DNA of 64,000 nt from Amoebophrya sp. A120. Taxonomy: Eukaryota; Protista; Dinoflagellata. Where the stretch lies: NCBI GenBank assembly GCA_905178155.1, contig CAJINV010000009.1, positions 3,280,768 to 3,344,767 of the forward strand. The letters run 5' to 3'. Below the pieces are notes generated by a model. That model made no database searches, was not told where the DNA came from, and was given only the letters and a program-made list of their open reading frames with translations. Of the stretch, positions 22,045 through 62,565 are shown piece after piece. The position numbers and the translations under genes were made by a program. How positions within the stretch are numbered: position 1 is the first letter of the stretch; each line of letters opens with the position of its first letter.

Positions 22045-22264
22045 TATGACAGTGCACAACTCCCCCTCCCCCTCATTTGTCATGCAAAAACCCAAGTCCA
22101 GTTGCTACCTTGTGGCACCGCGTGCATGACAAATTCCGGGAATCCGAACCGTACTACACTCGGCGCATGAACTTGTCATGCACAGGGTCCACCTGTAGTG
22201 GAGTTTGTAATGCTGTTGATACCATACAAATTATGAGGGGGAGTGGGGGTTGTGCACTGTCATA
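22045..22264. mobile_element. Introner family D, DR cacgg (probably in the 5' UTR)
   Basis: TIR tatgacagtgcacaactccccctccccctcat / atgagggggagtgggggttgtgcactgtcata. Confidence 0.9.
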
Positions 22265-22278
22265 CACGGCCCCCCTTG

Positions 22279-25200
22279 ATGACGATCTCCGAGGAAAGTT
22301 GGCAGCAGCATTGGCATATCAAGTGCAAAAGTATCGTCCTAGTATGAATTGCATTACAAATTGCCTTAGCATTACAAATTAATTTTGTAATGCGGATTTG
22401 CCTTGAGAAACAAAAAGATTTGTAAGGCATAAATGCAATTGTACGAGTGCGATACTTTTGCTGTGGATATGGCAAAACACGTTTTCTAATGCGCAACTGC
22501 TGGCACAACAAGGGCTTACGAACACGACGACGACGACGAACAACAGCAGTACGAACCAGAACCTGACCCACCAGCAGTTTAACCAATATAACACCCAAGA
22601 CCAACAAAACCTCGCAGCGGTACAGCAGTTCCAAAACTATTACGACCAAGCGGCGCAGCAGCAGTACAACCAGCTGGCACAACAGCAGTACTTGTATAAC
22701 CAACTCGCTTGGTACAATACCAATACCAGCAATACGAATACAAATCCTGCCAATACAACGAATAGTACCATGGGCTACTACGACCGCAGTTCCCGTAATG
22801 CCGACATAGGGGATATGGGAGTGTTAGGATCGAAATCGACAAAATCGAAAAACTTGTAATGCACAAAATCGATGCCAGTTAGACCCACAGTTTGTAGTCG
22901 GCGCATGACAAACTTACCACGTCCTGGAAGCGAATCTGTCATGCGGTTTAGGGCAAAATAGCTCCCCTCCGTCATGCGAGCCACCAGCGCAATATGTGAC
23001 ACTTAGCAGGACTACAATCTGCCTCCTTTGCGTCCTCTGCAATAGAGGCACTTTTGCTGTCGCATTTTCTGCATGACAGATTATTTCGACCTTGTCGATT
23101 TCGATCCTGACGCTTCCATAGGAGACAGCCGGCGGTGCATGGGTTTGTTCCTCTCGCTATCCCATGTAAAAACGTCCCCACCCCATAGTCAAGATGGGGA
23201 ATCGACTAGACAAGTCCACGAGTTTTGGCTGTTTTGCATGACAAATTTGGAGTCGCCTTGTAGTGCTGTTTGAGGTCGTTCAGCAGCATCACAGATCTAG
23301 CACATCGCGCTGATTGGCGCATTACAAACTCCAAAACGCGAATAACAAATGCTTCTCATGGGGCTCCGCATGACAAACATTTTGAGCATGCAGATTTGCA
23401 TGACAACTCTGGGGTGGGGACGTTTTTACACAGGATACTCGCGGGGGCGTCCCGGGGAGAAAGATGTGTACACGGGGAAATCGCAGGGCATGAACGGGAG
23501 CTGGGATGACGTTGGGATCTCCCGGCTCGTGGGCGAGTGGCGGAAGGAATTCAAGAAAGTGACGGATAAGTACAGCCACAAGCCCGCGCACCAAAGACCC
23601 ACGTTTCTGATCACCGATTTTCTTTTCGAACAAAACAAAATTGGGGACGAAGGGGCCAAGACGATCTTCGAGTTCCTGTTGGAGTATAAAGTGAAATGCA
23701 ACGTTATCAAGCTGTACAAAAACGACATCGGGGACACCGGGGCGTACTACATCGCGAAATATTTACGGGGCATGGAGGACTACGCGGTCCGCGAGTTGCA
23801 CTTGTCGGACAACTACATGGGGGCGAAGGGAATGGAGGACCTTTTTCAGGCGGTGGTCGGAAACAAAATGTATCCGAAAGAGGAGAGGCGAGGACCGTCG
23901 GTGTCGCTCTGTCCACTGTGGCTGCGCATCGAGAATAACTGTATTCGCATATAAGCATTTTTTTTTGTCATGCGTGCCGCCATGTCCATGTGTTTACATT
24001 TGTTGTTTTGAATTTGATTCGAAGCCTTACTTTGAGACGACCGCATGTTGACCAGAGACAACTGCATCGTCGATTTTTGATTCGTCCAATGATCACTGAA
24101 ATCACAGGCATCACCAACTTTATGGAGAATTTCGCGAAGATGGTACAGGAGGCCACCGACATCCGGACCCGCTTCATCCAGCCCGGCTACTGCAGCGAAA
24201 CGGGAGCGGTGAAACTCTACAAGGACAAGGCCGGGAAGGATGACGACAACTGGAAGGGGTACGTGATCCGGGGTCAGACCGGCCCCGCGTTCGCCCCCTA
24301 CACGTGCGCGGAGATCAACGGCAACTTCCCCGCCCTGTATTGCAATGAGAAATGCTCCCACCCCACACTTGGCACCAGAATTTGTATTGCAAACCTTTCC
24401 AATAGAAACATTTTCCGTCTTGCATATCTCAGCATCACAAATTTTCCATTCTGAATAGCTCGAATTTATTGTGTTGCGAAGGGGCCCAACAGCAGCGGGA
24501 TCTGTTATGCACAAAGCACCTTGCGCATCTAGATTCTGCATCAGAAAGGCTCGCAATCCTTTCACGCAACACAAAAAGGTTTCATTTGGAAACTTTGCAT
24601 GACAAACTTTTGCAAATACGGGGGTGGAGGCATTCTTCATTGTAATACCCTGCACGTCATCTTTGGGCAGAAGCAGCACCTGCATAAGGTCCAGTACACC
24701 CCCAGGCACGCGAAAATGCCCCGGCCGGTAGACGCGTTGTATCAAAATGAAAAATCCCCCCTCCCCATATCAAAGGGGGGATTTGTGTAGCATGATTTGC
24801 GACCACAAATCATATTGCCATGCTAGAAGGCAAAAGGTGCGGACTGTAGAGCTGGCTGGCGTGGGAAGGCCTTGCAACCTCAGCATGACAGGAGGCAGCT
24901 GGCATAGGGAAACAGCATGACAAATTTCCTGCAATTCAGGCAGCAACTGCTTCTCTTGGCCTTCTAGCAATACAAGTCGATTTGTGTACACAAATCCCGC
25001 ATGACAGATTTCCAATTCGATATGGGGTGGGGGGATTTTTCCTTACGATACGTTGCTGGATTTGTTTCCCGCCGGCGTGGCTTCCCCTAACTTCAAACCC
25101 ACGGTTCCATATGAAATGCAAATATGTCTGGGTCTGGAAGAATCCAAACTTGTCATGCAGAATTTCCATGCCCCGTGAGGTCTGGAATGCAGGACCTAGC

Positions 25201-26256
25201 ATGACAGAATCTGCGAGGTCTCTATCGTGCCTCTTCTGCATGAGAAACTTCCTCTCCTGGTGGTCAGAAAAGGGCATCTTTTGTTGCTCACGCAAGATGA
25301 CAGATTTTTGTGTGAGGCGCAGGATGCATCACAGGCTCCATCCTTCCAGACATCCAGGGATATTTGCAATGCATATCCCATCCTCGGTGACAAATCCGGC
25401 CAGTCTGACCCAGAACCAGCTGACCAATGGCGGTGGGAAATCCGGACCGCCGCAGGGCGCGGCTGTTCTGGGGGGGAAAAACGTGCAAAATTTGCGCCAA
25501 TTGAACAAAAACAACCTCCCGAACCCCGCAGCTTTGATGTCAACCAACGGTAATAAGCCCGTTGCTGGTAACTCCGCAGCTCCTGCCCCGTTACTCCCCC
25601 TCCGGGTGCCTCCAGCGAAAAACTCCTCCGCAGCGGCGTCAGGTGGCGGGGGCAAGAACAGTGGAAACAACAGCAATGTGAAAGGTAATGGGGCAAATCA
25701 ACAGCAGAGAGAACGGTCGCCCCGCCGTGGAGGTCAAAGTTCTAAGGACCACCAGCAGCAACAAGCGGCTGTCCCGAAACCGCCACCAACGCTGGAGCAA
25801 ATTATCGAAAATGGGGGTACGCCGGACCTGCTCGGTGGCGTGAATTCGGAAGAGGAATTCAACTTTGACAGCTTCAACGGCGGCTTCAACCCTTTTGCGG
25901 CGGAAATGAACGACGATGGAACGGGGAATCAGGATGGCATGTTGGATGACAACGGCGACAATTTTGGCGAGATGAATGCCGGTGACGATAACTACGACGA
26001 AACTACTGGGGACAATTTGCAGACCAGCGCCGATTCGGACAGCTTTTTCGTGAACGACATTGACCGGGAGTTCGGGCCGCAGAACGAACTGATCGAGCGG
26101 CACAACGGATACATTGCGACCATGGGCCTGGAAGAGCTTCCGAACGATTGGATCTACGCGAAGGGGATGGGTAACAAATCGAAAATCTACTACTTCAACA
26201 TGTCAACCCGGCACGCGACCACCAACCGGGGGGAAGTGTTTTTGGCCGGGGAGTGA
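22279..26256 (+). CDS. Q/N-rich, RNI-like leucine-rich-repeat protein with C-terminal WW-like domain; exons 22279-22316, 22475-22813, 23126-23157, 23443-23940, 24108-24337, 24653-24739, 25056-25109, 25381-26256
   Basis: LRR motifs NKIGDEGAKTI, NDIGDTGAYYI and NYMGAKGMEDL; ELPNDW...IYYFN. The frame is continuous after removing six introners and one GT-AG intron (23941-24107). Confidence 0.8.
22317..22469. mobile_element. Introner family C, DR tggca
   Basis: TIR tatcaagtgcaaaagtatcg / cgatacttttgctgtggata. Confidence 0.88.
22814..23120. mobile_element. Introner family E, DR gggga/ggaga
   Basis: TIR tatgggagtgttaggatcgaaatcgacaa / ttgtcgatttcgatcctgacgcttccata; removal gives DIG|DSRR. Confidence 0.88.
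23158..23437. mobile_element. Introner family F, DR ctcgc
   Basis: TIR tatcccatgtaaaaacgtccccacccca / tggggtggggacgtttttacacaggata. Confidence 0.92.
24338..24647. mobile_element. Introner family G, DR ccctg
   Basis: TIR tattgcaatgagaaatgctcccacccc / ggggtggaggcattcttcattgtaata. Confidence 0.88.
24740..25050. mobile_element. Introner family B, DR cgttg
   Basis: TIR tatcaaaatgaaaaatcccccctccccatatc / gatatggggtggggggatttttccttacgata. Confidence 0.92.
25110..25375. mobile_element. Introner family A, DR ttcca/tccca
   Basis: tatgaaatgcaaatatgtctgggtctggaag ... cttccagacatccagggatatttgcaatgcata; removal gives PTVP|SSVTNP. Confidence 0.88.
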
Positions 26257-27549: not shown

Positions 27550-30101
27550 ATGATGCCGACCGGCGCCAGCAACAAGATCAGTTTCACTTTCGGTCGATTG
27601 ACCAGCGCCGGCGCGGCAAAGGTCTGGGCGCCGGGAAAGGCCACCGCCCCCGCGCCGAACCGAAATGGGTCCACGACGACTCCCAACAATGCTGGAACGG
27701 TTGTTCCTGTGGTGCAGCAAGAAGTTGTGGCTGAAAACCAAATTCTTGCGCTGGAACATCAAGCAGGAGGGGATGCTGGTCGTACTACTGCCACTGGTAA
27801 TGTAGCAACTGCTACATCCTCTACAGGCGGAGATAAAAATGTCAACAATCACGTCCCACCAGAGCTGCAAGAACATCAGGCCACAACAACGTCATCTTTA
27901 AACACCCCCCGTGAAAAGAACCTCGCCGTGGTCCCCGCTACTTTGAAGATCCCTCCACCCGCCCGCCCGCCGCCCAGAGTGCGGACGAAGCGGAGTGGGT
28001 TTGACGTGGGGCCGGGCGGGGAGAAAGTAGTTGTCAACACGGAGAACAAGCAACAAGCGCAAAAGAACAACGGAGGCGGGACTCCTGACGAGGCGACGAT
28101 GAGCTCCGAGAAGGTATCAAACCACGAGAACAAGAGGCAAAATCGTGTCACAACGGTGCAAACGCCTGCTCCTCCACCACCTGCCGCCACGGGCAATGCG
28201 GGACCGCGGGCGAATGTTTCGTCTAGCAAAAATAACGTGGCGCCAACAAACTCGGTTCGTGAGGACGGGAAAATATTAACTCAGACCGCTGGGAACAACG
28301 AGTCTGCAAAGACGTCATCTTTGTCCTTACAAAAGAACACGTCGGTTGTTGTACCTGCTCCGCCCCCACCTCCTCCGCCCCCACCTCCTCCGCCAGCCGC
28401 TAAACCGCCTACTTCTACGCCCGTCGCAACGACCTACGATCCGGTGAAAACTGCGGAGCTGATCGCACACCTTGAGCAGGACATCGGGCCCAAGTGGAAC
28501 TGGATGAAGGAATTACTCTGGAACCGCAACCGATGCATCCCGAACTCTGCCCCGACGCCGGACAACTTGCCCCGATCTCCGAACGAACTTTTGGATTACG
28601 TTTTCCACATGATTTTCGACATTCACGAGCGGATCAAGCAGGAGTACTCGCTGGAGGAGTTACCGGGGTATCAAATGTAAAAATGTCTGGGTCTGGAAGA
28701 ATCCGAACTTGTGATGCGTGTTGCGGATCATACAAAAGTCTGTGTTGCATGACTTGCAAAAGGTCCCACTTCTATCCATGTTGAGAAGGCATTTCTCATG
28801 CAGAATAGGCCGCACCAAGGGGCTGCAGAACCTGTGATGCTAGGCCCTGCATTCCAGACCTGGCGGAGCTTGAAAAACTGCATGACAAATCTCGGAATCT
28901 TCCAGACCCAGACATTTTTGCATTTGATACGGGGGAATGGATGTACATTTCGGGCATCAAAACCAACCCGAAAATTGACCCGAAAAAGATGTACTACTAC
29001 AACCTCGTGCGGCAATTTGTCACGTTGGAGCGGAAGGCGGTTTTTCTCGATCCGTCGAATTACAATAACCTTCCCCACGCGGTGAAGCGGATCCCCTTGG
29101 GGATTTTCGAGGCGTTCAAGGCACAGGCGAACCACTTGGCGCTGAATATGAACGTCAATAGGAGGTGGGCCCCCTCGTTCTCCTCATTGGATGTGGGCGG
29201 CTGCATTGAGCAGCAAGAACACAAGCAACCGCACGACATCCTGACACGAAAAAGAACTGCTGTAGTGTGTCATGCCAATTAGGTGTGGGAGGCACCGAGA
29301 GCACACTGAACACTTTTGCATGGCGAATTCTGTTGGGGAACGGAAAGAAAATTGCGGCGCACTTCACTTGTGTTTAGCATGACAAAGGACAGGGATGAGG
29401 GGGAATTGTGCACTGTGATACTCCGTCCGAGGAATGCTGAGGGAAGCAGTAGTAGCAGTTGTTCTTCAACCATTGGAGGTTGTAGCACTGCTTCCGCGGC
29501 GTTGGCGAAAGTAAACGGAGAGCATGCAGGTACCGGAGATGTTGGTGGCGGACGAGAAATATTAGACGGAACAAGTACAACCAGAAAGAACATCAAGCAA
29601 CAAGCCGAAGTAAAGAAGACGAAGCCGTCACCGACGCTGCTGCAAATCCACCCGGGAGAGTTTGATGACGAAGATGGTAATAACGGTGAAAAGGAGTCCG
29701 AGTCTAATGTGGTCAAGAAGCAAATGCAATTGCAAAGCCAAACTACGCCAAAATCAAGCGCCGCTCTGACCCCACTTCCGAAAAGTGTAGGAACCACGTC
29801 GAGAAATGCAGCTGCGCCGGCTCCGCGGCCGCGTCCACCTTCTTCCGCTTTCAACGTTTTGGAGGACATCCGAAATAAAATCCTCGCGGGCAAGAGAGCA
29901 GAACTGGAAAACCGCATTCGCAACAACGTTTTAGCGGGTCGGAATCGCCGGGTGTGGGGGCCGCAAGGTGGGGAGAATAGTAGTTCATCCACCGGGAATA
30001 GTATTAACGCAGACAATGGAGGAGGGGATGGGGATGCTAGTGCTGCGGGTGGTGGGCAATCTGTCATGCCGGAGGCAAAACGCCTGAAGAGAGGCGAATA
30101 G
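27550..30101 (+). CDS. Proline-rich protein with WW-like domain; exons 27550-28668, 28935-~29200, ~29421-30101
   Basis: EELPG|EWMYISG...KMYYYNL after introner removal; poly-Pro tract. The donor of the last intron is unresolved. Confidence 0.7.
28669..28929. mobile_element. Introner family A (opposite orientation to 18768), DR cgggg
   Basis: Near-perfect family A TIR; the interior gatgctaggccctgcattccagacc matches the reverse complement of the 18768 and 25110 interiors. Confidence 0.92.
29265..29420. mobile_element. Truncated introner family D (right end only)
   Basis: gcatgacaa...atgagggggaattgtgcactgtgata matches the right TIR of the 22045 element; no left TIR found, so the start is approximate. 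Confidence 0.6.
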
Positions 30102-39837: not shown

Positions 39838-42800
39838 ATGTTAGCCCGCAGCTCTTCTTCCGCGGTCGCACGGCGGTCGATATCGCGTTCCGCCGCGCGG
39901 CGAGCCCAGGTGCGCCGTGTTGAAGATCATGCGCAACATGTAGTTGCAGCACCGTCGGTGCTTTATTTCGGGCCTGGACGAATTTCCGCTTATGGCTACG
40001 GGTCAACATCGTCCACAGCGCTGTCCTTGCCCGGTCACGACAGGCACACGACCACTACTTCTACACATGGTCCGACGTCGCAGGTACGACCCTCATCAAG
40101 GGGCTTCGCAACCTCGAGTCCACCGGGGACGAAAGACCACGATGAAACGCGACCGAGTACTAAAACGACAACCTCCTCCAGCACCGAGGCTGGAGATGAG
40201 CAAGCAGTGACCACGTCGAGCAGTGTGAGTTCTAATGGTAGTGCGAGTAGTACCTCCTCTTCAAGTTCAAGTTCCAAAGACGAGAAAATTCTGGAGAAGG
40301 CGATTCTGGTAGACGCTGAGAAGGAGGTGCTGACTTCTGTGGAAACGAGTTTTCACGGAGCTGCGGTAACAAGCGGATCTGGTTCCACTGCAAGTTCTTC
40401 ACGAAAGAACGGGTCTTCGTCCTCTGGAGGTGGATCTTCGTCTTCCAGCTCCAAACAGAATAAAAATGCATCTACTTCACACTCGACAGTGGAACACACC
40501 CTCAACCAACTCCCTGAGGAGGAAATTTCCGGGCACCTCTGGTTTTCTAACATCTACCCCAATCAGCGCCATTTCCTTGATTTTCGCTGGTTTTTCACGA
40601 CGCAGAACCACCGAACGCTCATCCCGCAGCTGCTTCCCCCCAGCAGCATCAAGATTGCGCGGTACTTGCCGCGGAAACGGGAGGGGGGCGTGTTTGTGGA
40701 CTTCATCGCGCACCCGAGGTTCCAGAGGTCGATCTTGTCGAAGATGGGCAAGTCGATAAAACTGCGAAAAGAGGAGAAAACGAACGCCGAAATCCATTCG
40801 TTTGTGTCCATGGGTGTGCAGAAATTTTTGAAAAAAAACGACTACAAAGCGCCCCTGACCAACTACTACGTGCGGGCGCACGAGGTTTTAGGAAAACCCT
40901 TCATCGACGAGTTTATCGGGCGGTATCCAAGTAACGTGCTCAAAGTCAAATTGGGCGAGGAAGTGAATATTGCAGCAGCTGGTCCCGTTGGAAGTTCTAC
41001 TTCAGGTGCAACCACTTCTACGGTCACTCCGACCAGTTCGTCAGCAAGTGGTTCTACTGGCGACCAAACTACAACTGGCCATTTACTAGAAGAAGTAGCT
41101 GTGCCACCAGCCGCGGGAACAAGTGCAAAGAGCTCGAGCAAAATGAAGATGAAGACCAAACAGGCAAAGATGGCGAGCCTGAAGCAGAACAAAACCACGA
41201 AAATGATGTCAAAGCAGGATCCTGTGGTGGAGAATCAAGACCACAAGCTCGTGGACATCGCATCGCCTGGGTTAAATTTGGTGATCCGGGGGGAGAAAAG
41301 CTCTACAGGAGCAGGGGAAAACAAAAGCGACGCCAAGGAGAAAATGCAGCAGAAGTATCAAAAGGCGTTGGAAAACGCGACCTTTTTCAAGGAAGAGAAC
41401 CTGCATGCGGTGATGCGCTCCTTTGGACAGTTGGTTGACATGAAGTACGACAGTGCCAGCCAGGAGTGGCGCGTGCAGTTCCTCCGCGCACACTCGGCCG
41501 TTGCCGCCCGGAACTGCCTGCATCGGGCGCCCTTGCACAAAATCTACTCCAGCATCGTCTATCGGGAATTACGGGAGCTGTACGATGCGCGAAGTACGAC
41601 CCCGCTGGAGGGCGGGAATGCCGCGGACGGGCATGGTGCGCTGGATGTTGCTGGAGGGACGATTTATTTTGGGGAGGAGGTATTACGGACTAAGGATTGA
41701 TGTGAAACAGAAACTCACAGGAGATTTGTACGTCGATACATTTTGTCTTCTTGCATGAGGTTTTCAAATAAGCAGCAAGATGACCTGACGATGGTGCATC
41801 GGAGTCAGTGTAGTCTTCATGTTGCGAGCATCACCAACTTCAAATCAAGGATGATAAAAGCGATCTAAAAAAACAGGACGACGCCCCGGCCCGCGTGCCC
41901 GGGATGCAAAGAATTCGGCACTACGGACAAAAATTCGCGGAGCGGCTGACGAGCATGTATGTGCACGGGAGGTTTGGAAGGAATACTGAAAGTACAACTC
42001 GAGTCATCGGTGCGGGAAGTAGTACGACTGGCGATCAGCAACTCGGTTCATCTTCTGAGCATGCACACAGCAACTACACGCTTACCTCCTCCTCGACAAG
42101 CAGCAGCACCACCAGCGCAAAAATCCCCTCCACAGTGTCCCTCCCGTTGCCAAAAACTCTGCCGGACGAAGTGATCGCCAAAACACAGTCCACGGTTTTC
42201 GAAATCAAGTACGAGCAGAGCCAAGCGCTCCGAACACTCCGCGAGCAGCTGGTGCAGAATTGGCGGATGGCGATTTTGGCCCTCCTGGGGTTAGTAGGTT
42301 TCAGCACGACGTTATCCAGGAAAAAAACTGTGTAAGTGTAACTTTCTGTGGCTAACAGCATCACAAATTTGCTCTACATGACAGGGAAAACCTGTCATGC
42401 GTGGCTTGTAAGGGAAAACACATATGAAGAGAGGACTTCATGGCTGTCTGGCATGACAAGTGTAACTGTTTTGCATTTTCTGCATCACAGATTTACACTT
42501 ACACATTTTTTTTCTTGCATAGACGTTTCTCTTTGACCCCTTGCGATTGTTTTTCGTGAAGCGGAAAATCGAGGCGGCCTACGATCTATCAACTGCAAAT
42601 ATGTCTGGGTCTGGAAGAATGCCAGACTTGTCATGCAGGTTTTCCATGACCCATGAGGTCTGGTATGTAGGACATAGCATGACAGATCCTGTGAGAGTTC
42701 TATCATGCCAATCCTGCATGAGACACCGCCTCTCGGTTAGGTCAAAAGTGGACATCAGCTTTTGGTAGTCATGCAACGCAAATTTTTACGTGAGTCAGAT

Positions 42801-45800
42801 TTAGCATGACAAGTTGCTTTGTTCCAGCCCCAGACACTTTTGCATTTGATACGATCGGAACTCCTACGCGTATGGGTACGGAAAGAGCGGCGAGACGGGT
42901 GGGTTGCTGTGGTTCCTGCCGACGCGGCTGTTGGGGATGGGAGATTGGCTTGGTATGATAGAAGAAGCTTTTGCATTTTTTTTTCTTTTCATCTGATTCG
43001 GGGTCTGTTGCTGCTGCTGGTATTGTTCTTTTCTTGTGCCTGGAAGATGATGAAAACACATTCTGTATACTTGAACAGAAGCAATACAAAAAACCAGGCC
43101 TCGGCGCCCTGTACCGCGCTTTGCGGATGTCGACGAGTAGTGCGTCGCGCACGGGACGCGGGCGCATGAATTTGGAAGAGCAGTTTTCGCAGGCGCGGAA
43201 GGAAGATTTGGAAAAAATCAAGCACTGGCTGCGCACCGACCCCCCGGAGCGCGTGATGCTTCTCACCGGGCCGCGGGGCGATGGCAAGCTCGAGGTGATT
43301 CAGGAAATTTTCCGCGACAACTATATCACGAAGAGTAGTGGTACTGGTACGACGGTGGGGCAAGAACATCAAGTGGGAAGTAGAACTACAATCGGGGCAA
43401 CATTATCTGCACCACGCGAGGTGGACCATCAGCCAGTGACACACAGCTCCACGACGGCGTTGCAACCGGTCGTCGAGTATGAATTGCAAAACGTCTGGGT
43501 CGGGAAGGTTGGAACTTGTGATGCTAACTCTGGACTCTAAAAAAATCTGTATTGCATGACCAGCAAGAGGACTCTAGTTTGTGCTACGCGGGGATGGCAT
43601 TTGTCATGCGGATTAGGTATCAGGAAGGGTTCTGAAAATCTGTGATGGTAGGGCATACATCACAAACAATCCTGGGTCATGCAGAACATGCATGACAAGT
43701 CTCAGAATCTTCCAGACCCAGACATTTTTGCATTTGATATCGAGCTGGATTTTTCCCCGTTACTAGCCCGGAACAAGGATGAAAGGTTCCTCCTAAACGC
43801 GCTGTGTCGCATGTTCAACTACTACCCGGCGATGCTGATTTGGGACCAGTCCGCGGCCCTGCTCGACACCGTCGTGCCCGGCGCGAGTCGGATCGCCGGC
43901 GGGTCGGGCGGGGGAATGAACGAACAGGTGAACACGCAACTCTCGCGGATCTTGTCTTTCACGACCGTCGCACTGGCACAGCATAAGGAGGAACGGCGGA
44001 AACGGGAGGAGAAGGGCTTGACGGGTTTGAGTGGAGGTGGTACAACAGCTAGAACATCTGCTGGTGATATTGATCAAGCAAAATCTTCGTCGAACAGCGG
44101 TGATGCCGTTCCCGCCTCCCTGACGCAGAACACGAAGGAAAAGTACCCGCTCTTCGTGATCGAGGGCTTCACGCAGGAGAATTTGGACTCCATACCGAAT
44201 CTCCTGGAACTTCTCATCAAGTGGGCCGCGCTCGTTTCCGAGCGAAAATTAGCCAAAGTCGTTTTTCTCATCGACGGGTCCTGGGGCCACTCGTTTTTCC
44301 AGAAGGTCTTGAAGCACCGCCCGGACTTGCTGGAAGAGAAAGTCTGGGGCGACGTGCCGATGGAAATGGTCCGGGAGTGGCTCGGGGAGAGGTTTTTGGT
44401 CGATCTAGCGGAGTTGGAAGGACTGAAAACAGCAAATAATGCTGACGAAGTTGATCATAAAACTAGCGACGCACTGGTGTCCTGGGCGACGAAGAGAAGT
44501 ACTACTACAACTAGCGCTGCTACCGGTGATGTTGCAGCCGGCTCAACACCAACATCTTCGGAAGTTCCAACGACCACTAGTACGACAGCCCAGGAGCTTA
44601 TACTCGGTGAGAAAAATCGACTGAAGACGCAAGAAGTTTTCCCGCCAGCCGTGTCTACGGGTGAGGCAGCGACTGACTATGGAGGAATAAACCTTCTGGA
44701 AGTTGTAGCCGGTGGATCGTCAACAACATCCTCTTCCTCTAAAGTACAAACACTTGATGTGGCTGGAGAAAAATCAGGACAACAAGTCCTTTCCCCGCCG
44801 CCGTCCCTTCTCCACGTGTGTTCCCCGCAGGAGAAGGTGTTTATGATCAACCGCATCTTGAAGACCCTCGGGGGCCGCTTGTCAGACTTGGAGATTCTCC
44901 AGTCGAAAATTGAGAACGACAACATGATATGAAATGCAAATATGTCCGGGTCTGGACGGTTAGAACTTGTCATGCCAGATCTTGATCACTGAAAAATCTG
45001 TGTTGCATGAACTCCAAATAAAGCTGCCCACTTCTTGGTAGGCAGAAGGCGGATTTCTCATGCGGCATAGGCATGAGGAAGGTCTTGCAAAACCTGTCAT
45101 GCTTCTGTGTGCATTCCAGACCATGCACGTGGTCCGCGAGATGCATGACAAACCTTGCACTCTTCCAGAGGACCCAGACATATTTGCATTTGATACATGA
45201 CGCCGTCGGAAGCTCTGGCGGAAATGATCGAGACCACGACCACAACGGTCCGCTCTCTCCTGGTCCGCGACGAGAAAGAGGCGCTGTCCGTATCCTGAGC
45301 AAAAACGTCTCCACCCCAGAGTTGTCATGCAGATTTGCAATGACAGGAACATTTGCAATGCGCATCTACATGAGAAGCATTTCCAATCGTGTTTTGGAAT
45401 TTGTAATGCTGTAAACAGGATGAGGAGATGGGTTTGTGATGCGACTGCCCTTGCTAACCTACACTACACTACAACGACGAACTTGTCATGCATGGCTTCC
45501 AAAACTCTTGGATTTCTCTTGCAGAGTTCGCAACTTGACTATGGGGTAGGGACGTTTTTACTCAGGATAGTCCGCGAACCAGCTTTGGTCCCGGAACCAG
45601 TTGTGGAAAGCGATTGAGATCTTGGCGCTCGGGGAGGCGAAAGCGGAAAGAGCAACTGGTAGTGCTGTGAAAGGTGGACAAGCCGCGGCGCACAAAAATA
45701 CCTCCTACGTCACCTACGATGCGTTTCTCGATTACGTGCTACGTGGGGACGAGCGCATCATGCGGCACATGCTCGCGTCGCAATTGATAACCACGAAAAT

Positions 45801-47667
45801 GGTCGAAGTCCTTGGGGAAGAAGAAGTAGACCACTCTGGAAGTGCAGCAGCAGCAGTAGGTCCACTGCGAGTTGATCATGAAGCGGGTTCCTTCTACTTC
45901 CGTCGCTTCGGGCAGCGAAAGATGCAGCAAATCGTGCTGCCCGGGTCGCCTTTATTCGGCGAAGTTTACAATCGGTTGTATTTGGGGGAGGAGAGTACAA
46001 TTTCAAGTTCGAGTTCAAGCGAGGGGACCAAAAAAGACCCTTCCACCAGAACGTCCAGCATCTCCACTTCCTGCCGCAACATTTTTGGCCTCTCCGCTGT
46101 GAAGGAAGACATCGGGAAAGTGGAAAAGGACCTGCAACACTACGAAGCCGAATTATCTTGATTAAAAACGTCCCCACACCAGAGTCAAGATGGGAAATTT
46201 GCTAGACAAATCAGCCAGCTTTGGTGGTTTCGCATGACAACTTTGTCCTCGTAGTGTAGTCCTTTTTTGCTAGTTCAGCAGCATCACAGATATAGCATTA
46301 TCGCGCTGATTCTAGCATCACAAATTTCAAAACACGAATAGAGAATGCCTCTCATAGGGCTCCGCATGAGAAACTTTTATTTTTGGCATGCAGATTTGCA
46401 TTACAACTCTGGGGCGGGGACGTTTTTACAAACAATAGGAATTGCAGAAGGTTTACACGGCGGAAAAAGATTTGCGGAAACTCGAGCGCGACGCGCACGC
46501 CGTGGTACACCACCACATGCTGTTGGCGGAACGCGCAGGTGGCGGGACTTCAACATCGAGTTTTGGGTCTTTTTTGAATTCTTTCGTGACCAATTTGGTC
46601 TTCTTTCCGGTGAACGTGATTCTGTACCCCTTCAACAGGAGTGTCACCTTCGCAAACATTGTGGACGACATATGGGGTTCTCAAAGAACGTTACATTCTC
46701 AAGTGTTGCGTGATTTGTCATGCAAAATGACCATGAACCACCAGACGACCAAGCTGCTTCGCATGACAAATTCTCGGGCGGCTAAACAGCACTAGTAGAG
46801 TTATCCGTGCCAACAAATCTGTAATGCAAGCCGCGCAACGCTCTCCCCCTCACCTGTGGTGCTATTCTTGCATTACAAATTCATGCAACAGTTGAGAATG
46901 TAACCTTTGGGAACGCCATACGACACGACCTTCGAGCGGCAGAAGGCGGTGATTGAGGAGAAGAGGGAGGAGATGGAGTTCAAGGTCTTCGAGTCGCTAT
47001 CAAATGTAAAAATGTCTGGGTCTGGAAGAATTCACGTTTGTCATGCTTGTCTGGCATGACTTTTAAATCTGTCATGCACGTTACCCAAGAGCTCCGTTGT
47101 CCTGTGATGCAGAAGTGCAGTTTGTCATGCGGAATAGGCAACACCTAGGAGCTCCGAAACTTGTCATGCTGAGCCAGCATTTGTAGCCTCATCATGAAAC
47201 GCCACCCAGCATCACAAGTTTCCAGACCCAGACATTTTTGCATTTGATAGTCGCGAAAGCTGTATTTGCTCGGGCGAATCCACAAGGAGCAGGAGAAGCT
47301 GAAATATCCTGTGTAAAAACGTCCCCACCCCATAGCCAAGTTGGTAAGTCTGCAACACAAATCTCCAAGTTTTGGGAGTTTTGCGTGACAAGTTTCCATC
47401 TGTAGCGTAGTGCAGGTTAGGAAGGGCAGCCGCAGGATGAAAGCCAGCTTGTCATCCTGTTTACAGCATTACAAAGTCGAAAACACGATTGGAATTGTCT
47501 CTCATGGGGAAGCGCATCACAAATGCCCCCGTCATTGCGCATTTGCATGACAACTCTGGGGTGGGGGCGTTTTTTCTGAGGATATGAAAATTCTGATCGC
47601 GCGCAAGGACGAATACTCGGCCGAGAACAAAAAACGGAAACGGGAAATCGTGCCGTTTGCGGTGTGA
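39838..47667 (+). CDS. YME2: Mitochondrial escape protein YME2/RNA12-like (RRM + TM + P-loop-like); exons 39838-41679, 41877-42312, 42527-42586, 42857-42952, 43098-43477, 43745-44927, 45201-45290, 45575-46153, 46443-46670, 46926-46997, 47255-47304, 47590-47667
   Basis: Arg/Ser-rich presequence; WFSNIYP, REGGVFVDF, GKPF..YPS, SAVAARNCLH, FDPLRLFF, TGPRGDGK, GGRLSDLE and W..NQLW. Continuous frame after removing nine introners and two GT-AG introns. Confidence 0.82.
42313..42521. mobile_element. Introner family H, DR gacgt
   Basis: TIR tatccaggaaaaaaactgtgtaagtgtaa / ttacacttacacattttttttcttgcata; removal gives TT|FLFDPLR. Confidence 0.92.
42587..42851. mobile_element. Introner family A, DR cgatc
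   Basis: Family A TIRs; frame restored on removal. Confidence 0.92.
43478..43739. mobile_element. Introner family A, DR tcgag
   Basis: Family A TIRs; VVE|LDFSPL. Confidence 0.9.
44928..45195. mobile_element. Introner family A, DR catga
   Basis: Family A TIRs; DNM|TPSEAL. Confidence 0.9.
45291..45569. mobile_element. Introner family F (reverse orientation), DR gtccg
   Basis: The interior matches the reverse complement of 47305-47584; LS|ANQLW. Confidence 0.92.
46154..46437. mobile_element. Introner family F, DR cgaat/ggaat
   Basis: tatcttgattaaaaacgtccccac ... ggggacgtttttacaaacaata; EAE|LQKV. Confidence 0.9.
46671..46920. mobile_element. Introner family K, DR cgaca
   Basis: TIR tatggggttctcaaagaacgttacattctcaa / ttgagaatgtaacctttgggaacgccata. 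Confidence 0.9.
46998..47249. mobile_element. Introner family A, DR gtcgc
   Basis: Near-perfect family A TIRs. Confidence 0.92.
47305..47584. mobile_element. Introner family F, DR tgaaa
   Basis: tatcctgtgtaaaaacgtccccacccc ... ggggtgggggcgttttttctgaggata. Confidence 0.92.
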
Positions 47668-48589
47668 TGTTGAACGACGGAAGGCGATACATAGAAGAGA
47701 TGCCGGGGGGTCGTGTGGAGATGCACTTAATCTTAAGTAATGATGTGCACACGCTGCATATTATTTAAGTACATGTACAGCAGAAGGGAAAGAACGTTTG
47801 AATTCATCGACGGTCGTGCTGTAGTACAGTGGTTCGAGGACACTTGTAGTACAGCCGTCCACGACCCGATTTGTGATCATGTTGCTGATAAACGCGAACG
47901 AATATGAGGAACTCTCGAGTGGTCCCAAGGACAAGACGGTCGAAAGACCGGATCAATACTGCGGAGGACGGAGAGCTGGGCCGGCAAAGTGATGATGGCC
48001 CAGACGAGGACTTGGTCGTCGTTGTTCTTTTCCGCTGTATTTTTGGTGCGTCTGTTGTAGTCAGCACCTATCGCTGCCATTGTTTCTACTTACATCTTCC
48101 TGCGATCTCGCTTTCCTGATGTAGTACTCGCAAAAGTGGCAGGACGTGTCCCGCACTCTCTGTTGTTTTTCGATTTCGCGGTAGAGTTTGTCTTTGTACC
48201 GATTTTAGTATCAACTTCGGCGCTTCTATGCGATCGGTTTCGGTACAGAGTGTCATGATACGATTCGTTCGGTGAATTTTGCGAGCCCTTCGCTTTTCGT
48301 AGCGAAATCCATTTATAGCTAAGCAGTTTCATCATCAGCCTAAAGCAGTGGAGGGGAGGCGCACTGTAGAGCTTTTTGTTTGATCCACGATCGTAAGTTC
48401 GCTCGCTCGTTCGCTTCGTTGTCCGCTTCTTGACTACGAATGAATAGATTAAGATTTGATTACGAACTGCGCCTGATTCCGAGACCTATAATTTATCGAG
48501 GGAACTTTAAAAGCGAGGAGAGGTAAATTCTTTGTAAACGTAAAAAAGCAAGTAGAGCCAGAAAAATAAAGTCTAATTCCGAATAAATC

Positions 48590-51500
48590 ATGCCCGATAT
48601 TGTTCCCAGCGCGTCCTCCTCCTCGAAGGCTGTGAAGCCGAAGGAGCAGTTCATAGGGACGACATCATCCGCAAGTGCTGGCTCGGCCTCGAAGCAGAAG
48701 AAAGGGCTGAAACCCGCTGCCAGCAAGTCCGTTCAATCACGAGATGACAAGAAGGCTCGACGTCACCAGCAGGAGGATGACAAAGGGAAGAAGAGCACGA
48801 AAAATTATAGACCCCCGCCGGCGCCGCGGCTGGACGAAACAAAATCAAAAGTAAAGGTCCAGCCTTCTTCGCAACCAAACAAGAACTCTCCCGCCCCTCG
48901 ACTGCCGACGACCAAGCCGCTCCTCCCACCTTGTCTCGAGGAGTTGCGCACCACAAAAAACCACTTGCAACCGGTGGACGCCGATCGAATCGACGATCCA
49001 AATCTGAAGCTCGACGCGGCCGGGGTGCCGGTGGTGCTGAAAAGCTTGAGGGAGACGAGGAGCAACGACAAAAATCACAATCAGGGTAGGTCATCTAATA
49101 TTTGCGGTACTAGTTCTGCGGATAATTCATCTACTGCGAACAAATTTTTATCCGCTAAGCAACGGCGGCACCTCACCGTCTTGAGCAAAAATCTAGGGCC
49201 GTTGGACCACGATCGAAGGCGGCTGATCAAGCAGTGGACCGCGGTTCTGTTCCCGCTGGTAGAGGTGGACGAAGGGAACATAAAGAAGCAGAATGATTCG
49301 CATGCACAACAAGCCACGTCCACCTTGTTAACAACTGCGTCGTCCGACGTGAAGAATGCAGCGGGTGGGGGACAGCGACAGCCGTCTGATGCTCCTCTAC
49401 TTCCGGATGAGTGTAGTTCTTCCACGAGAGGAAAAGAAGTTGGTGGCAAGAAACCAGAGGTAGGAACGACGTCTTCATCTAGCGGAATAAATGGAAAAGT
49501 AAATGAAGTTCTGTTACAAGAGCCAGTAGATTGTGCATCGCTTGAAACCAAGAAGAACAAGGACGACCTGCCTAGCACAATAAAAAATCGCGCGAAACAC
49601 GAACTAATATCGCGGTGCCTGCAGTTGCACCCCGACGACTTTGGCGTGGAGGAAATCGAAGCGCTCGAAGAGTTACGGAAAGCCATGCTCAAGAAAAGAA
49701 AAGCCCGCGCGCAGGTGTTGCAGAGCTTATTGCACGACGGGCGGGGGTTGGGGATGGGGTTGCACTTGCAGAACGAGAACCAGAAACAGGATGAAAAACC
49801 TCCGCAGAAGGTGATGAACGACACTGGGGCATCAAATAAAACTACTACATCGAGTCGCACACCAGAAGAGTCCTGTGCAACGCCCGCAAACCTGTTTTCC
49901 CAAACGCAGCATTTCTTTGCGGACGGATCGCAGACGCAGACCGGGGACGAGATCATGGAAGGCCCACGACCTGGTGTGGAAAAAATGACTGCTACTTCGG
50001 GTCAAAAAACAGTGGCGGGAGATGAAAAGCAAGGACAGGTGGGTGAAGTAGATGGCTGCGGGAACAACATTACGCCCGGATTTTTTGCGTTTCCGTTTTC
50101 ATCTTCAACACCTTCACAAACACCCGCGTTTAATAATACTCTTACGCCAGGTTACAACTACGGCACGAGCCGCTTGCTGCCGTTTCAAAACAAGAGGCGG
50201 GAGGAGATATTGGCGGAGGAAGAGAGAAATAAACGGTTGAAGAGGAAATACCTGATATCGAAAGGAAAAATCCCCCCTCCCCATATCAAAACGGAACTTC
50301 TGATGCTGGAGTTGTGTACACAAATCAGCTTTGTATTGCAGCAAGGCATAATTGCGGCTAGACCCCCAGTCTGCGTTTGGGTGTAGTTGTTCAGCATTGC
50401 AAACGGCTGCCCTTTAGGCGCAACAGCGTGGCAAATCGTTTCCTTAACGGGGCAAAGGCTTGTGCCCTTGTTTTCTTGCAAGACAAATGTGATTTGTGGC
50501 CACAAATCAGCAACGCAAATCTTCGGAAACATACAGCGTCAATATGGGCAGGGGGAGTTTTTCCGTTCAATACGTGAAGCAGCTGAAAGTGATTTACGAA
50601 AACGAAATCCTGAAAAAAACGTCAGAGCTCCGGAAGGCGCAGGTGCTTTTCAGCAAGCAGGAGGGAAAGTTGCGGGAAATCCAAGCAGAGAAATTGGAGT
50701 TGGAGATGGGGACGAACTACTGCAGTGGAGCGACCTGCGGAGCTAATGTGTTAGAAAAGCAACTGTTCAAGAGCCATCCGACCGATTTCACCCACCTCTC
50801 CGGCGCCCGACAAGTTGCCGACTACCTTGAGTTTCTTGTTTCCGAGCGCCGGTTCTGGCTGGGAATTTCGGAAAACTTGGAAAAAGTGGAGAAGATGTTG
50901 AAGGAAGAGACAAGAAGAAGAAGTTGTGGGACGGCCACTTCTACGCTGGATAAACAGAGTTCATCCCTGGTGGAGAAGAAATCCGTGGATTCAGCAGCAA
51001 ACGAAGACAGACTCGTGGCGCGAAACGATAGCGAAACGAGGAAAAATCAGTCGTCGCTTGCAGTACCAAATGAAGAAGCAAGTGACGACGAAGTAGAGAA
51101 CGCTGACAACTACAATAGGACCACGAGCACGGCGACTTCCAGCAGACAGCTTGTGGCTGCAGAGAGGTTTTTTCACGAGGAGATCCAGGAAAAGATTCTT
51201 TCTCGTCGGCGCGAGCAACAAGCCAGTCTTTTTCCTAATAGTAAAAGCAACAAACGGAAGCGGAAAACAAACTTGTCCCTCGTGAAATCCGGCGAAGAAC
51301 CTGGAGGTGCAAGCTCTTCGAAGAAAAGGAAGATAAAAGAAGACCAGAACCACGACTCTAAGAACTCAGGCGGACGGGCGGAAACGACGGATCACTGTGA
51401 AGATATGGCAATGGGAAATACTTTTTTCAGAAAACTTTTTTTTTTCGCCGCATATGATCTCACGGCACTCCATAGGCATACAAGCGGGCACGCGCAGAAT

Positions 51501-54500
51501 AGATCTGTCTAAGCGAGTAGACGGCTCTTGGTACTTAGCTAGCTACCTGTGACGCAAAAGAGATGCGGCCTCCGGAGTAGCCGCGGCCATGGATTCGGTC
51601 CTTGGCGCTCTGGCCTCAAGGTACTTGACACACAATGCCCCCACCGCGGCCTTTGTGTATGGGGCGGAGGCTCAGGGTAAGTCAGCGAAATTCTGAATGG
51701 CTCGCTTAGACGCGGCTGTCTGAAACGCGCGTGGCCTCTAGGCGTCGCTCGCCCCAGCTTTCGAAGTTCCCCAATAGAAAAATACAGATCAGGCTTAGAG
51801 CTTCGGCGTCTTTGGGTTTGTTCCGGGCCAGGCTGTACAGCTCCCCGTCTTGGCCGAATTCGCGCTGTCATTGTTCCAGACGCATTCTTGCAAAAGCCGC
51901 AAACTTGCGGAAACACAAAGCGCGGCCGGGCCCCCCCTTGAGGGGGGGGTTTGGGGGACCCCCCTTCGTGGAGATATCAATGGGGAGTAGCTCTCGGCAA
52001 AGGCCCCGAAAGGGGGGGGTTTGGGGGACCCCTTGGGGGGACCCCCGAGGACTTCGACTTGCAGCCGAGGAGGGAACTCTGCTAGCCTCCTGGCAAAACA
52101 GGCTGGGGCGAAGAACCGCACCCCGAGACCCAGGCCCGGAGGAGCGCCGCGGCCCTGGCATCACTGTCGTCAGCGCTGCCGCGTATGGATTTGAATTATT
52201 TTGAAGCTGCGCGCGGGCGCCTGTTTCTCCTGCTGGGGCGTGGGCCTGCTGTTGGCCCCAACCCGCAGCACGTCCGGCCTTGGGCTGCCCGCGTATTGCT
52301 TTCATTAAAGCGAAAGCACTGCAGGGGCTGGCCTTCCGACATCTACGCCGGCCACGCCGGACCCAAAGCCATGACGCAGTGAGCCCCGAGTGCGGTAATC
52401 TTCTTGCCGTCAGGCAAGCGAGCTCAGGATACCACTGCAGGCGCTGTTGCCACGCAGTCGATTTTTGCCGGCAAAAAGCCATCTACTTACCGCGACGGGT
52501 AAGTTATATGTGGCAAAAAAAAAGAGTTTTCAGCAAAAAGTATTTCCCATTGCCATAGAAGATATAGGCGGACGGGCGGAAACGACGGATCACTGTGAAG
52601 ATTATCCTCCTGTAGTAGAAGAGCCAGGAGAAGGAGACCTCCAAGCGGATAGTACTGGTCCAGTGAAAAATCAAGGAGATGATCATGAGGATCCCAATTG
52701 CAGCAAAGGTAAAAACACGTCGCCAGCAGGAGTTTCTTCCGCCCAAGCCGACCTCCTCGCCCAGCCGACCCCCGCGCCGGTGTTTTTTTCAGAAGAAGCC
52801 GCCGCTTGGCTGCAGAAGAATTTCGCCGTGGACGATAGTTTGTGGGTGTACGCGAGAACGTACATTTTGCTTGAGTCGGAACATAGAAATAGCAAGGAGG
52901 ACAGCGATTTGACAACATCACCGAAGGACTTTCTTGCCGAAAAAGCGTTTCTCTACCTGAAGTGCGCGGTTTTTAAGCAGCTGGTCTTACTGCAGAGAGA
53001 GATTGAAACGAGTTACGATCAGGTTTTCGCGATTGCGACTGGAACATGTGAGGAAAAAGGGGAGAAGCATGTTGAACTGGTAGCTCAACATGGGGACAGG
53101 ACGAGCAAGATCAGTACATGTACATCAACTGCAGTTCCGGGTGGAACTTCTACAACTGTCCCGGACCACCCCAAGAACACGAACACGAGCAGTGGCCGCG
53201 GGCACTCAATCTCGTTCACTCAGCTGGTCAACAAGAAGAAAATCAACATCATTTCCCAGCTGGAGACCTACAATGAACGAATCGCCCGGGCGCACACCGA
53301 GCTGCAATCCATAGAAGCGGAGATAGTCGAGAAAACCGCGGCCATCGGGGATTGCAAGGAGGAATTCGATATCCTGTGCAAAAGTATCGTATTTTTATTG
53401 CAATCATGCATTACAAATTTATTTTTTTCTTATGGTAAAGCCTACCGCATTGCAAATTCAATTTCTCATGCTGATGAAATTTGTAATGCATTTATACGAG
53501 TGCGATATTTTAATTTTTGCAATGCATATTCGAGGTCGCAGTTTGCGAGGTTTTCGGCGCGGATCAGATAGCCGCCGGCGCCGAACCCGGGAGCGCGTCC
53601 GCCGTTTCTGTGCGCAGCGCGGCCGCGGCGTCGGTGCTGTCGGCGGCGCAGGCAACGCTTTTTGTTCCAAACGGTTTTTACAGCGGTCGTGGTGGTCGTA
53701 TTGGAGGCGGTGGTGCAGCAGCGGGGCGGGGGTCTTCTGCACAGACCCCGGCACAAGTTGTGCAACATCCACACGTGGCCGCGCTGTGGACAAAAGCAGA
53801 CTCGACTCTGGAACAGGCTTGGGTGGCGGTTATGTCCCTATCAACTGCAAAAATGTCTGGGTCTGGAAGGTTGACACTTGTGATGCGCATTTCAGAGCAC
53901 AGAAAAATCTCTCATGCATAGGCAGCAAAAGTTGCCCATTTTCTGTCACCAAAGTCAGGGATTTGTCATGCGGATTCGGAACTACTGCCCAATCGTGACC
54001 ATGCCCGTAGGAACTACTTTAATACTGTCTCTACGACTTTTGACTTCATTCATAACCTTCAATTGTATTCCTACCTAACTTGTATTTTTTGTTTTTTCTC
54101 TGTACGATTGGCCAAAGCGCCACCGGGACAGCCTGCCCGTAGACCACCGATGTCATGCGGATTCGGCATTGCGAACGCTTCTCGAAACCTGTGATGCTAG
54201 AGCTTGCATGCCAGACCTTCTGTGTCATGCAAAAGCAGCATGAGTCTTCCAGACCCAGACACTTTTTCATTTGATAGTCCCTGTGCGAACGGAGTCCAGC
54301 TTGGCGGATGGCCTTCAAGGAGCAACAGAATATCGCAAGAAAGAAACTGTGTAAGTGTAAATCTGTGATGCAGAACACGCAGCAGAGTTACACCTGTCAT
54401 GCCAGACAGCCATGAAGTCCTCTTTTCATGTGTGTTTTCCCTTACCAACCATGCATGACAGGTTTTCTCTGTCATGTACGGCAAATTTGTGATGCTGTTT

Positions 54501-54555
54501 CCCAAAGAAAGTTACACTTACACACTTTTTTTCCTGGATACAGAAGGGAGAATGA
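48590..54555 (+). CDS. Large hypothetical coiled-coil protein; exons 48590-50255, 50578-51403, 52563-53369, 53534-53838, 54282-54330, 54546-54555
   Basis: ORF pieces join in frame after removing five TIR elements (KYL|KQLK, EF|EVAV, MS|LCER, QQ|KGE*). Confidence 0.75.
50256..50572. mobile_element. Introner family B, DR cctga/cgtga
   Basis: tatcgaaaggaaaaatcccccctccccatat ... atatgggcagggggagtttttccgttcaata. Confidence 0.9.
51404..52557. mobile_element. Long (1154 bp) non-autonomous TIR element, family L, DR gaaga
   Basis: ~50-bp TIR tatggcaatgggaaatacttttt... / ...aaaaagtatttcccattgccata; GC-rich interior with no recognisable transposase ORF. Confidence 0.88.
53370..53528. mobile_element. 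Introner family C, DR ttcga
   Basis: tatcctgtgcaaaagtatcg ... cgagtgcgatattttaatttttgcaatgcata; similar to the 22317 element. Confidence 0.88.
53839..54276. mobile_element. Introner family A with internal insertion, DR gtccc
   Basis: Family A TIRs; 438 bp versus 252-271 bp for the other copies. Confidence 0.9.
54331..54540. mobile_element. Introner family H (reverse orientation), DR cagaa
   Basis: Close reverse-complement copy of 42313-42521. Confidence 0.92.
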
Positions 54556-57835: not shown

Positions 57836-58320
57836 CAGCAGCAGTTCCACCAGCAGCAGCAGCAGCCCCAGCAGCAGCAGCAGCTCCAGCAGCAGATGCA
57901 GCTCCAGCAGCAGCAGCTCCAGCGGCAGCTCCAGCGGCAGCTCCAGCGGCAGCTCCAGCGGCAGCAGCAGCCGCAACGGTGGCCGCGTGACTCACACGTC
58001 CAGCACACGGTACAAATAAGTACATGTATATATATATTGCACGCGCACGCATTTTTCGCATGGATATTGAAGCGAAATATTTATTTTGAGTGGGCCAAGG
58101 CCATCGCATGGAAAATCGTATCTATCATCATGGCATTCGCATGCCAAGAAATCTTCTTGGAAGTCGCGGGATTCACGGCGGCGTGACTATTAACTGAAAT
58201 GTGGCATACCAAAAACAGCAACGGCAGCAGCACAACCAGCGACCGTTTCTGCGGAAGCAACACCAGCAGCAGCAGCAGCAGATCACGCATCAGCAACCGT
58301 TGCTGCACCAGCAGCAGCGC
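57836..58320 (+). repeat. CAG / 12-bp (cagctccagcgg) repeats, probably poly-Gln coding exons of an unresolved gene
   Basis: cagcagcag tracts at 57836-57970 and 58218-58320. Confidence 0.6.
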
Positions 58321-62294: not shown

Positions 62295-62565
62295 TATGCA
62301 ATGCAAATATCGATCTGGGTCTGGAAAGGTTGAACTACCTGTATTGCGTGTTTCGCACCATATCTGAAAAATCTGTATTGCATAAGCAGCAAGGAATAAA
62401 GCGCCACACCTTCGTCACGCAAAAGCGCAGTTTGTAATGTGTTCTGCGTACTATGAAAAAGCGTTTGAAAAATTTGTCATGCTGCACTGCACTGAAAGGC
62501 ACAGTCAATCAGGACAATTCAGCATTACAAGTTCTTTCCAGACCCAGACATATTTTCGATGCATA
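62295..62565. mobile_element. Introner family A, DR gtgaa
   Basis: tatgcaatgcaaatatcgatctgggtctggaa ... ttccagacccagacatattttcgatgcata. Confidence 0.85.

Follow-up and report, generated by a model that had tools for sequence, protein, structure and literature searches.

Introner elements of Amoebophrya sp. A120 are removed precisely in both orientations and without canonical splice sites

Repeated non-canonical introns, termed introner elements, were described in Amoebophrya sp. A120 by Farhat et al. (2021, BMC Biol 19:1; PMC7789003). According to the accessible text of that paper, more than 60% of the introns in Amoebophrya A25 and A120 are non-canonical, and in A120 repeated introner elements account for 68% of the non-canonical introns and for 17% of the assembly. 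The inverted repeats of the A120 elements consist of TAT, 7 nt and at least three A, and direct repeats of 3-5 nt lie at the borders. The introner introns of A120 postdate the split from A25, U1 snRNA was not detected, and a model was proposed in which a hairpin joins the ends of the exons. How the non-canonical introns of the two are removed was left there as an open question. Here we analyzed a 64,000-nt stretch of A120 DNA (assembly GCA_905178155.1, contig CAJINV010000009.1, positions 3,280,768 to 3,344,767 of the forward strand), hereafter called the window. An earlier note on this DNA had proposed that the same element works as an intron in both orientations. We found that elements of three repeat families (A, F and H) are removed precisely from host genes in the window. 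No canonical splice sites are used, both orientations are removed, and the reading frame is restored.

The elements of the window are the published introner elements of A120. They share with them the host organism, the TAT motif, inverted repeats at the ends, direct repeats at the borders, RNA-supported borders other than GT-AG, many families and several elements per gene. Compared with the accessible text of PMC7789003, no structural difference was found; the direct repeats are given there as 3-5 nt and were 5 bp in all 27 elements here. Because the elements carry all the published features, the system is already known. Its interpretation is essentially published too, and we do not describe a new kind of system.

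Huff et al. are said to have described, in 2016, canonical introners of Micromonas, Aureococcus and others. In the accessible text of Gozashti et al. (2022, PMC9860276), canonical introners resemble our elements in being non-autonomous DNA transposons, with inverted repeats at their ends and a target-site duplication around them; their insertion makes an intron and leaves the mRNA length unchanged. They differ in that they carry or co-opt canonical splice sites, whereas here GT..AG was possible at none of the 12 joints described below and GA..AG at one. The nonconventional introns of euglenids, as far as PMC11282704 could be consulted, are alike in their non-canonical borders, in inverted repeats that pair the ends and in duplication-like junction repeats. 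They also have a likely origin from miniature transposons and a possibly non-spliceosomal removal. However, they belong to another lineage, have other end motifs and are released as circles after conventional splicing. Many introns of Fritillaria borealis (Henriet et al. 2019, as cited in PMC7789003, of which part was seen) are likewise non-canonical and derived from miniature transposons, but they prefer the border AG-A(N), and no border dinucleotide is common to the elements here outside extreme registers.

The window has about 50% G+C and is eukaryotic, with long open reading frames (ORFs) that are rich in S/T and lie nearly all on the + strand. The scan for elements looked for TAT...ATA termini whose arms match and that are flanked by repeats, and two more elements were added from RNA joints. 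This gave 27 elements with a total of 7,983 nt, or 12% of the window (Table 1); 26 of them are 153-438 nt long and one is 1154 nt. All 27 are flanked by a 5-bp direct repeat, interpreted as a target-site duplication, which is perfect in 23 cases and matches at 4 of 5 bases in the other four (18768, 22814, 25110 and 50256; elements are named by their first position). The ends read TAT, seven variable bases and an A run in 25 of the 27, and the remaining two are offset by 1 nt in the coordinates used. In the terminal columns, T/A/T was found in 25 of 27 elements, and A at positions 11-15 in 22-24 of 27. Predicted folds gave 22-51 terminal pairs in every element, beginning at the terminal bases or close to them, with similar folding energies for both strands. 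Over all elements, 836 of 1020 aligned arm positions were Watson-Crick pairs. The features of miniature inverted-repeat transposable elements (MITEs) are thus present: terminal inverted repeats, a duplication of constant length and no transposase gene. A Pfam scan of the ORFs of the 1154-nt element (51404-52557) did not find a transposase domain, no autonomous partner element was found in the window, and an Rfam scan of the window gave no match to an RNA family.

Several families occur in both orientations. The earlier note had read 54331-54540 as a reversed copy of 42313-42521 (family H), 45291-45569 as reversed relative to 47305-47584 within one gene (family F), and the copy at 28669 as reversed relative to 18768 and 25110 (family A). 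All these pairs were recovered, and the boundaries it gave agreed with the element ends within 1-2 nt. An inverted-repeat search showed that 42313-42518 and 54335-54540 are 90% complementary over 206 nt (H), 45291-45435 and 47440-47584 83% over 145 nt (F), and 18942-19035 and 28669-28762 83% over 94 nt (A). Self-BLAST aligned 45291-45569 with 47584-47305 at 80.9% over 282 nt (E 1e-68), 18768-19035 with 28929-28669 at 75% over 269 nt (E 5e-42), and 25107-25379 with 28932-28665 at 73% over 278 nt (E 8e-34). The full-length BLAST matches had E values of about 1e-34 to 1e-77, well beyond chance. Table 1 gives the orientation of each sorted copy, including the long A copy at 53839, which lies opposite to 18768, 25110 and 42587, and the weakly assigned H copy at 20337. 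The two copies of element Y (22317 and 53370) are mutually opposite. Opposite copies were as similar to one another as copies in the same orientation (0.66 vs 0.68 in A, 0.73 vs 0.72 in F). Therefore, each is a single family inserted both ways and not a pair of subfamilies.

The H match could be lengthened to 42313-42685 vs 54540-54189, but solely because a copy of family A sits 48-58 nt beside each H copy. The relative orientation of the A copy is the same at both loci (42313-42851 and 53839-54540), whose spacers and duplications are different and unrelated. The pairing of H and A might be due either to chance or to a common insertion preference.

Removal was studied in contigs from several sequencing runs. 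Runs X1-X4 were classed as RNA by guess, and X1 and X2 come from one sample. Of the raw RNA runs, X9 yielded no reads and X8 seven, which fitted in part and came from other copies; the junction evidence consists of the contigs. In the RNA-type contigs of X1-X3, 12 elements are skipped, and each skip takes the element together with one copy of its 5-bp duplication. The removed copies include one forward and four reversed members of A, two forward and one reversed member of F, and one member of H in each orientation. This agrees with the proposal that the element works as an intron in both orientations of + strand transcripts, and neither orientation was left unspliced.

In host gene 1, one contig each in X1 (5420 nt), X2 (4811 nt) and X3 (4806 nt) corresponds to 39784-47939 in 12 pieces. 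These contigs skip two GT..AG introns and nine elements, namely one forward H, one forward and three reversed A, one reversed and two forward F, and a single-copy element. For each element the skipped length exceeds the element by 5 nt, and the target-site duplication leaves its joint ambiguous by five to seven letters. The pieces sum exactly to 5420 nt, the length of the mRNA, and the joined ORF has 1708 codons. Its product from the first Met (1697 aa) is identical, letter for letter, to P0001 at NCBI, 'unnamed protein product [Amoebophrya sp. A120]'. The ortholog P0002 from A25 aligned without gaps over five of the nine element junctions, and the other four are in, or next to, poorly conserved stretches with gaps; this comparison is with a protein and not with an empty DNA site.

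In host gene 2, a 1466-nt contig of X2 is made up of 52573-53363, 53528-53833 and 54540-54860, plus 48 nt that had no listed placement. It skips the element at 53370, the long A copy (53839-54276) and the reversed H copy (54331-54540). By contig arithmetic, the 48 nt form a micro-exon at 54277-54324, since this is the only placement compatible with the flanking repeats. A 964-nt contig of X1 has the same first pieces. The joined X2 sequence carries a + strand ORF of 386 codons, whose stop lies 13 nt past the H joint. Upstream, a 939-nt contig of X1 corresponds to 50137-50252 and 50575-51397, according to arithmetic on the lengths and on a marked difference 41 nt from the contig end. The RNA and DNA contigs differ from the window at three sites just upstream of 50256: a GTT insertion at 50156, C>T at 50177 and an extra A at 50200. 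Variation between alleles or strains could account for them, as could minor errors of assembly. No RNA contig bridges the 1154-nt element at 51404-52557. This element exceeds the intron length limit of 1000 nt that appears in the methods of PMC7789003, consulted in part. For this reason the public annotation may be split there.

Removal in both orientations could be ordinary splicing if cryptic canonical splice sites were present in each orientation, such as the GTAAGT in the H repeat. H does carry GTGTAAGTG near each end and has a T run ahead of its 3′ end. However, GTAAGT within the H repeat is not used as a splice site, the observed joints lie at the duplication and not at internal sites, and none of the 12 RNA-supported joints permits GT..AG, whichever register of the duplicated bases is taken. 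GA..AG is possible at one of the 12 joints and AT..AC at two, and no dinucleotide is common to them except TA at one end in extreme registers. The H joints allow only GA..TA, AC..AG, GT..AC and similar pairs. We therefore regard ordinary splicing at cryptic sites as having a negligible probability. Another explanation is that the assembly of repeat-rich contigs produced the joints as artefacts. Noise joints between distant copies were seen (42618>47209 and 45162>47220), with sides of 22-25 nt. In contrast, the sides of the element joints are 51-255 nt, and these joints recur in three runs and two samples. They also add up exactly to the contigs of 5420 and 1466 nt, and they give an ORF identical to a database protein. 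We give assembly artefacts almost no weight.

The reading frame gave further evidence. When each element was excised in silico together with 5 nt, + strand ORFs of 787 aa (spanning three elements), 471 aa (three), 514 aa (one), 314 aa (four), 931 aa (seven) and 1221 aa (five) were obtained. Excision with 0, 4 or 6 additional nucleotides gave at most 481 aa, across 2-4 elements. A control that only counted elements spanned by a single ORF was too lax, as 16-23 of the 27 elements were spanned despite wrong excision, and the lengths of the multi-element ORFs were used instead. Together with the protein of gene 1, the ORFs of 787, 471, 514, 931 and 1221 aa agree with the claim that the host genes lie on the + strand. 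Searches for longer annotated proteins of the other host genes found none.

The internal eliminated sequences of ciliates are derived from transposons and are removed exactly from DNA, with one copy of a short repeat left behind. The elements here might be cut from DNA like such germline-limited sequences, and the joined contigs would then be derived from DNA. The exact removal that leaves one duplication copy resembles precise DNA excision, and the RNA label of X1-X4 is a guess. However, the same contigs also lack the two GT..AG introns, have a depth of 0 over the intergenic 48168-48484 and end where the mRNA ends. The DNA-like contigs of X5 run on into the elements (52573-53387, 53482-53863 and 54513 onward), and the best 15 of the 269 joints in X5 are all repeat joints. 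The assembly of the window has all the elements. As the joined contigs are without ordinary introns and intergenic sequence while the X5 contigs enter the elements, removal at the RNA level is favoured, and we consider DNA excision very improbable.

We next consider which part of an element determines its removal. The interior is reverse-complemented between the two orientations. No RNA signal outside the repeats is therefore common to them, and as both are excised, the determinant must lie in the shared inverted-repeat ends. The earlier note had reasoned that spliceosomal signals are directional, so that excision depends on symmetric features, either the terminal RNA stem or a protein bound to the terminal inverted repeats. 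The shared ends as the determinant agree with our results; the stem or the bound protein would be a candidate form of it. Two tests of RNA-level selection on the stem were null or confounded. The premise was also incomplete, because an inverted repeat gives all copies the same directional RNA ends, 5′-UAU N7 A5 ... U5 N7 AUA-3′, whichever way they are inserted. End signals are therefore possible without a stem, and a stem is not strictly required.

The ends are better conserved than the interior. Conservation of the terminal 32 nt is 79-92% in families A and F, where that of the interior is 61-70%; the values for the H pair are 91-97% and 88%. It is nearly certain, in our judgement, what these elements are and how they behave. 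That they are the published MITE-like introner elements of A120, removed with one duplication copy in either orientation and likely guided by a hairpin, is the interpretation that we somewhat prefer as a whole. For the stem itself as the guide, we would put the chances at about even. The terminal inverted repeats would form a hairpin in the pre-mRNA, and the stem would set the two duplication copies side by side. One cut would then be made x nt ahead of the element and the other 5-x nt behind it, a fixed total offset of 5 nt from the base of the stem, with an asymmetry that would be set by the polarity of the RNA. Candidate enzymes might be a spliceosome without U1, or a separate nuclease and ligase, and the data do not choose between them. 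At the imperfect duplication of 50256 (CCTGA / CGTGA), the second base of the left copy was apparently kept, which suggests that x is at most 3.

Several points weigh against hairpin guidance as just described. The cut register within the five duplicated bases is ambiguous, and the contig at 50256 differs from the window elsewhere and may represent another allele, so that its joint is a hint only. No result here separates the stem from the end sequence as what is read. The mismatches in the arms, taken on the transcribed strand, comprised 35 G-U and 38 A-C, and the wobble pairs that RNA tolerates are thus not favoured; this test gave no sign of RNA-level selection on the stem. Changes in both arms that preserve pairing numbered 11 vs 2.3 expected in family A, 1 vs 2.3 in F, and 0 in H. 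The excess in A is common to several copies and was therefore probably inherited from the source elements. The needs of transposition alone can explain the conservation of the ends. Finally, for the copies at 18768, 25110 and 28669, the evidence of excision is ORF continuity only.

The main alternative to hairpin guidance is that the ends are read as sequence (5′-UAU N7 AAAAA and UUUUU N7 AUA-3′) by a modified spliceosome without U1 or by another factor, with the U run near the 3′ end acting like a polypyrimidine tract. TAT/ATA and the A/T runs are kept across families with different 7-nt cores, and the A120 motif in the accessible text of PMC7789003 is identical. The stems lack a G-U bias, as shown above. 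The spliceosome is active, because canonical introns are spliced in the same transcript, and A120 has most of the spliceosomal proteins according to the same partly consulted paper. However, the 7-nt cores vary and yet stay complementary, as a stem needs, although any inverted repeat would do so. There is also no branch site or GT/AG available, and splice positions are variable relative to the hairpin in the accessible part of PMC7789003. On balance, recognition of the ends as sequence appears possible but rather unlikely to us.

A further interpretation is a machinery that measures RNA structure, cuts and joins independently of the spliceosome, and is convergent with that of the nonconventional introns of euglenids, with the 8-mer TGTCATGC marking a common protein factor. 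It is based on the removal of both orientations, the absence of a shared RNA signal outside the repeats and the fixed offset of 5 nt. We consider this interpretation unlikely.

The window has 51 occurrences of the 8-mer TGTCATGC (reverse complement GCATGACA), compared with 2.45 expected, and none of 100 shuffles reached 51. Forty-six of the 51 occurrences are inside the 27 elements (e.g. 18809, 18987, 42393, 42451, 45323 and 47039). There are 3-7 copies per element, and the motif is common to families with different repeat cores; it is absent from the 1154-nt element. Family A has a pair of inverted copies, one about 42 nt inside either end, and in F nearly all copies have the same direction. 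The motif may serve as a shared binding site for a protein, and it did not turn up when the main text of PMC7789003 was searched.

The searchable main and supplement text of PMC7789003 says nothing of how elements are oriented with respect to the host gene, and 'orientation' refers to genes there. We found nothing in print that states the removal of a single family in both orientations, although figures and bioRxiv supplements were not visible and may address it. In the parts available, the methods of Gozashti et al. (2022, PMC9860276) allow insertion in the opposite orientation, and the pipeline of Gozashti et al. (2025, PMC12130899) required alignment in the same orientation. The latter paper, also seen in part, reports A120 introners with integrase-like ORFs between the inverted repeats. 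A 5-bp duplication would suit an integrase-like enzyme. One gene that holds the same families both ways, with all copies removed exactly, narrows the signal to the inverted-repeat ends, as a stem or as paired motifs, and away from the body of the element.

Table 1. Host genes, canonical introns and elements in the window. The sign on an element row is its orientation within its family, sorted by internal similarity; a dot marks an element with no orientation given.
Feature	Position	Strand or orientation	Duplication	Remarks
Family F, forward	12410..12698	+	TCTTT	
H-like element	18435..18645	.	TTTGA	
Family A, forward	18768..19035	+	GCTAC/GCTGC (4 of 5)	inside 787-aa + ORF after in-silico excision
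H-like element, weakly forward	20337..20545	+	TATCA	66% over 161 nt to 42313
Element	22045..22264	.	CACGG	
Element Y copy	22317..22469	.	TGGCA	opposite to 53370
Element	22814..23120	.	GGGGA/GGAGA (4 of 5)	
Family F, forward	23158..23437	+	CTCGC	
Element	24338..24647	.	CCCTG	
Element	24740..25050	.	CGTTG	ends resemble those of 50256
Family A, forward	25110..25375	+	TTCCA/TCCCA (4 of 5)	inside 471-aa + ORF after in-silico excision
Family A, reversed	28669..28929	-	CGGGG	inside 514-aa + ORF after in-silico excision
Host gene 1, RNA12/YME2-like, PF10443	39784..47939	+		12 exons, 2 GT..AG introns, 9 introner elements; Pfam match
Canonical GT..AG intron, 197 nt	41678..41874	+		joint 41677>41875; without inverted-repeat ends
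Family H, forward	42313..42521	+	GACGT	removed, joint 42307>42522; skips 214, 6 ambiguous letters; A25 gap-free
Family A, forward	42587..42851	+	CGATC	removed, joint 42579>42850
Canonical GT..AG intron, 145 nt	42952..43096	+		joint 42951>43097
Family A, reversed	43478..43739	-	TCGAG	removed, joint 43472>43740
Family A, reversed	44928..45195	-	CATGA	removed, joint 44921>45195; A25 gap-free
Family F, reversed	45291..45569	-	GTCCG	removed, joint 45285>45570
Family F, forward	46154..46438	+	GAATT	removed, joint 46149>46439; A25 gap-free
Single-copy element X, TAT..ATA ends	46671..46920	.	CGACA	removed, joint 46664>46920
Family A, reversed	46998..47249	-	GTCGC	removed, joint 46991>47249; A25 gap-free
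Family F, forward	47305..47584	+	TGAAA	removed, joint 47299>47585; A25 gap-free
Host gene 2	48587..54552	+		1221-codon ORF after in-silico removal of five elements; 3′ part backed by X2 and X1 contigs and ORF
Element	50256..50572	.	CCTGA / CGTGA (imperfect)	RNA contig joins 50252 to 50575
Large element, 1154 nt	51404..52557	.	GAAGA	23/24 matching ends; interrupts 1221-codon ORF, continuous after removal
Element Y, 159 nt	53370..53528	reversed vs 22317-22469	TTCGA	removed, contig pieces 53363 / 53528
Family A, long variant, 438 nt	53839..54276	- (by partial internal match to 43478)	GTCCC	removed; pieces end at 53833, resume after 48 nt at 54540
Family H, reversed	54331..54540	-	CAGAA	removed 13 nt before gene 2 stop codon; 90% identity to 42313
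A-like element	62295..62565	.	GTGAA	

Neighbouring elements are packed closely, with micro-exons of about 37-95 nt between them (42522-42586, 45196-45290, 46921-46997, 47250-47304, 54277-54330, 22265-22316, 23121-23157 and 25051-25109), and seven elements of host gene 1 lie inside 4.1 kb. This tight spacing suggests local or clustered insertion.

Some other features of the window were also noted. The highest G+C (0.61) is at 29282-31697, which also holds the only long - strand ORFs (339 and 453 aa), with no Pfam match. It might be either a change of gene direction or chance ORFs in G+C-rich coding sequence. In-frame CAG/CAGCAG repeats (poly-Q type) and 21-nt coding repeats occur in + strand ORFs at 57822-58328 and 7324-7476. 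At 63007-63423, an 84-nt unit is repeated in tandem about 3.4 times, each copy with the palindrome AAAAGATGC...GCATCTTTT, and a further inverted copy is present at 63324-63423.

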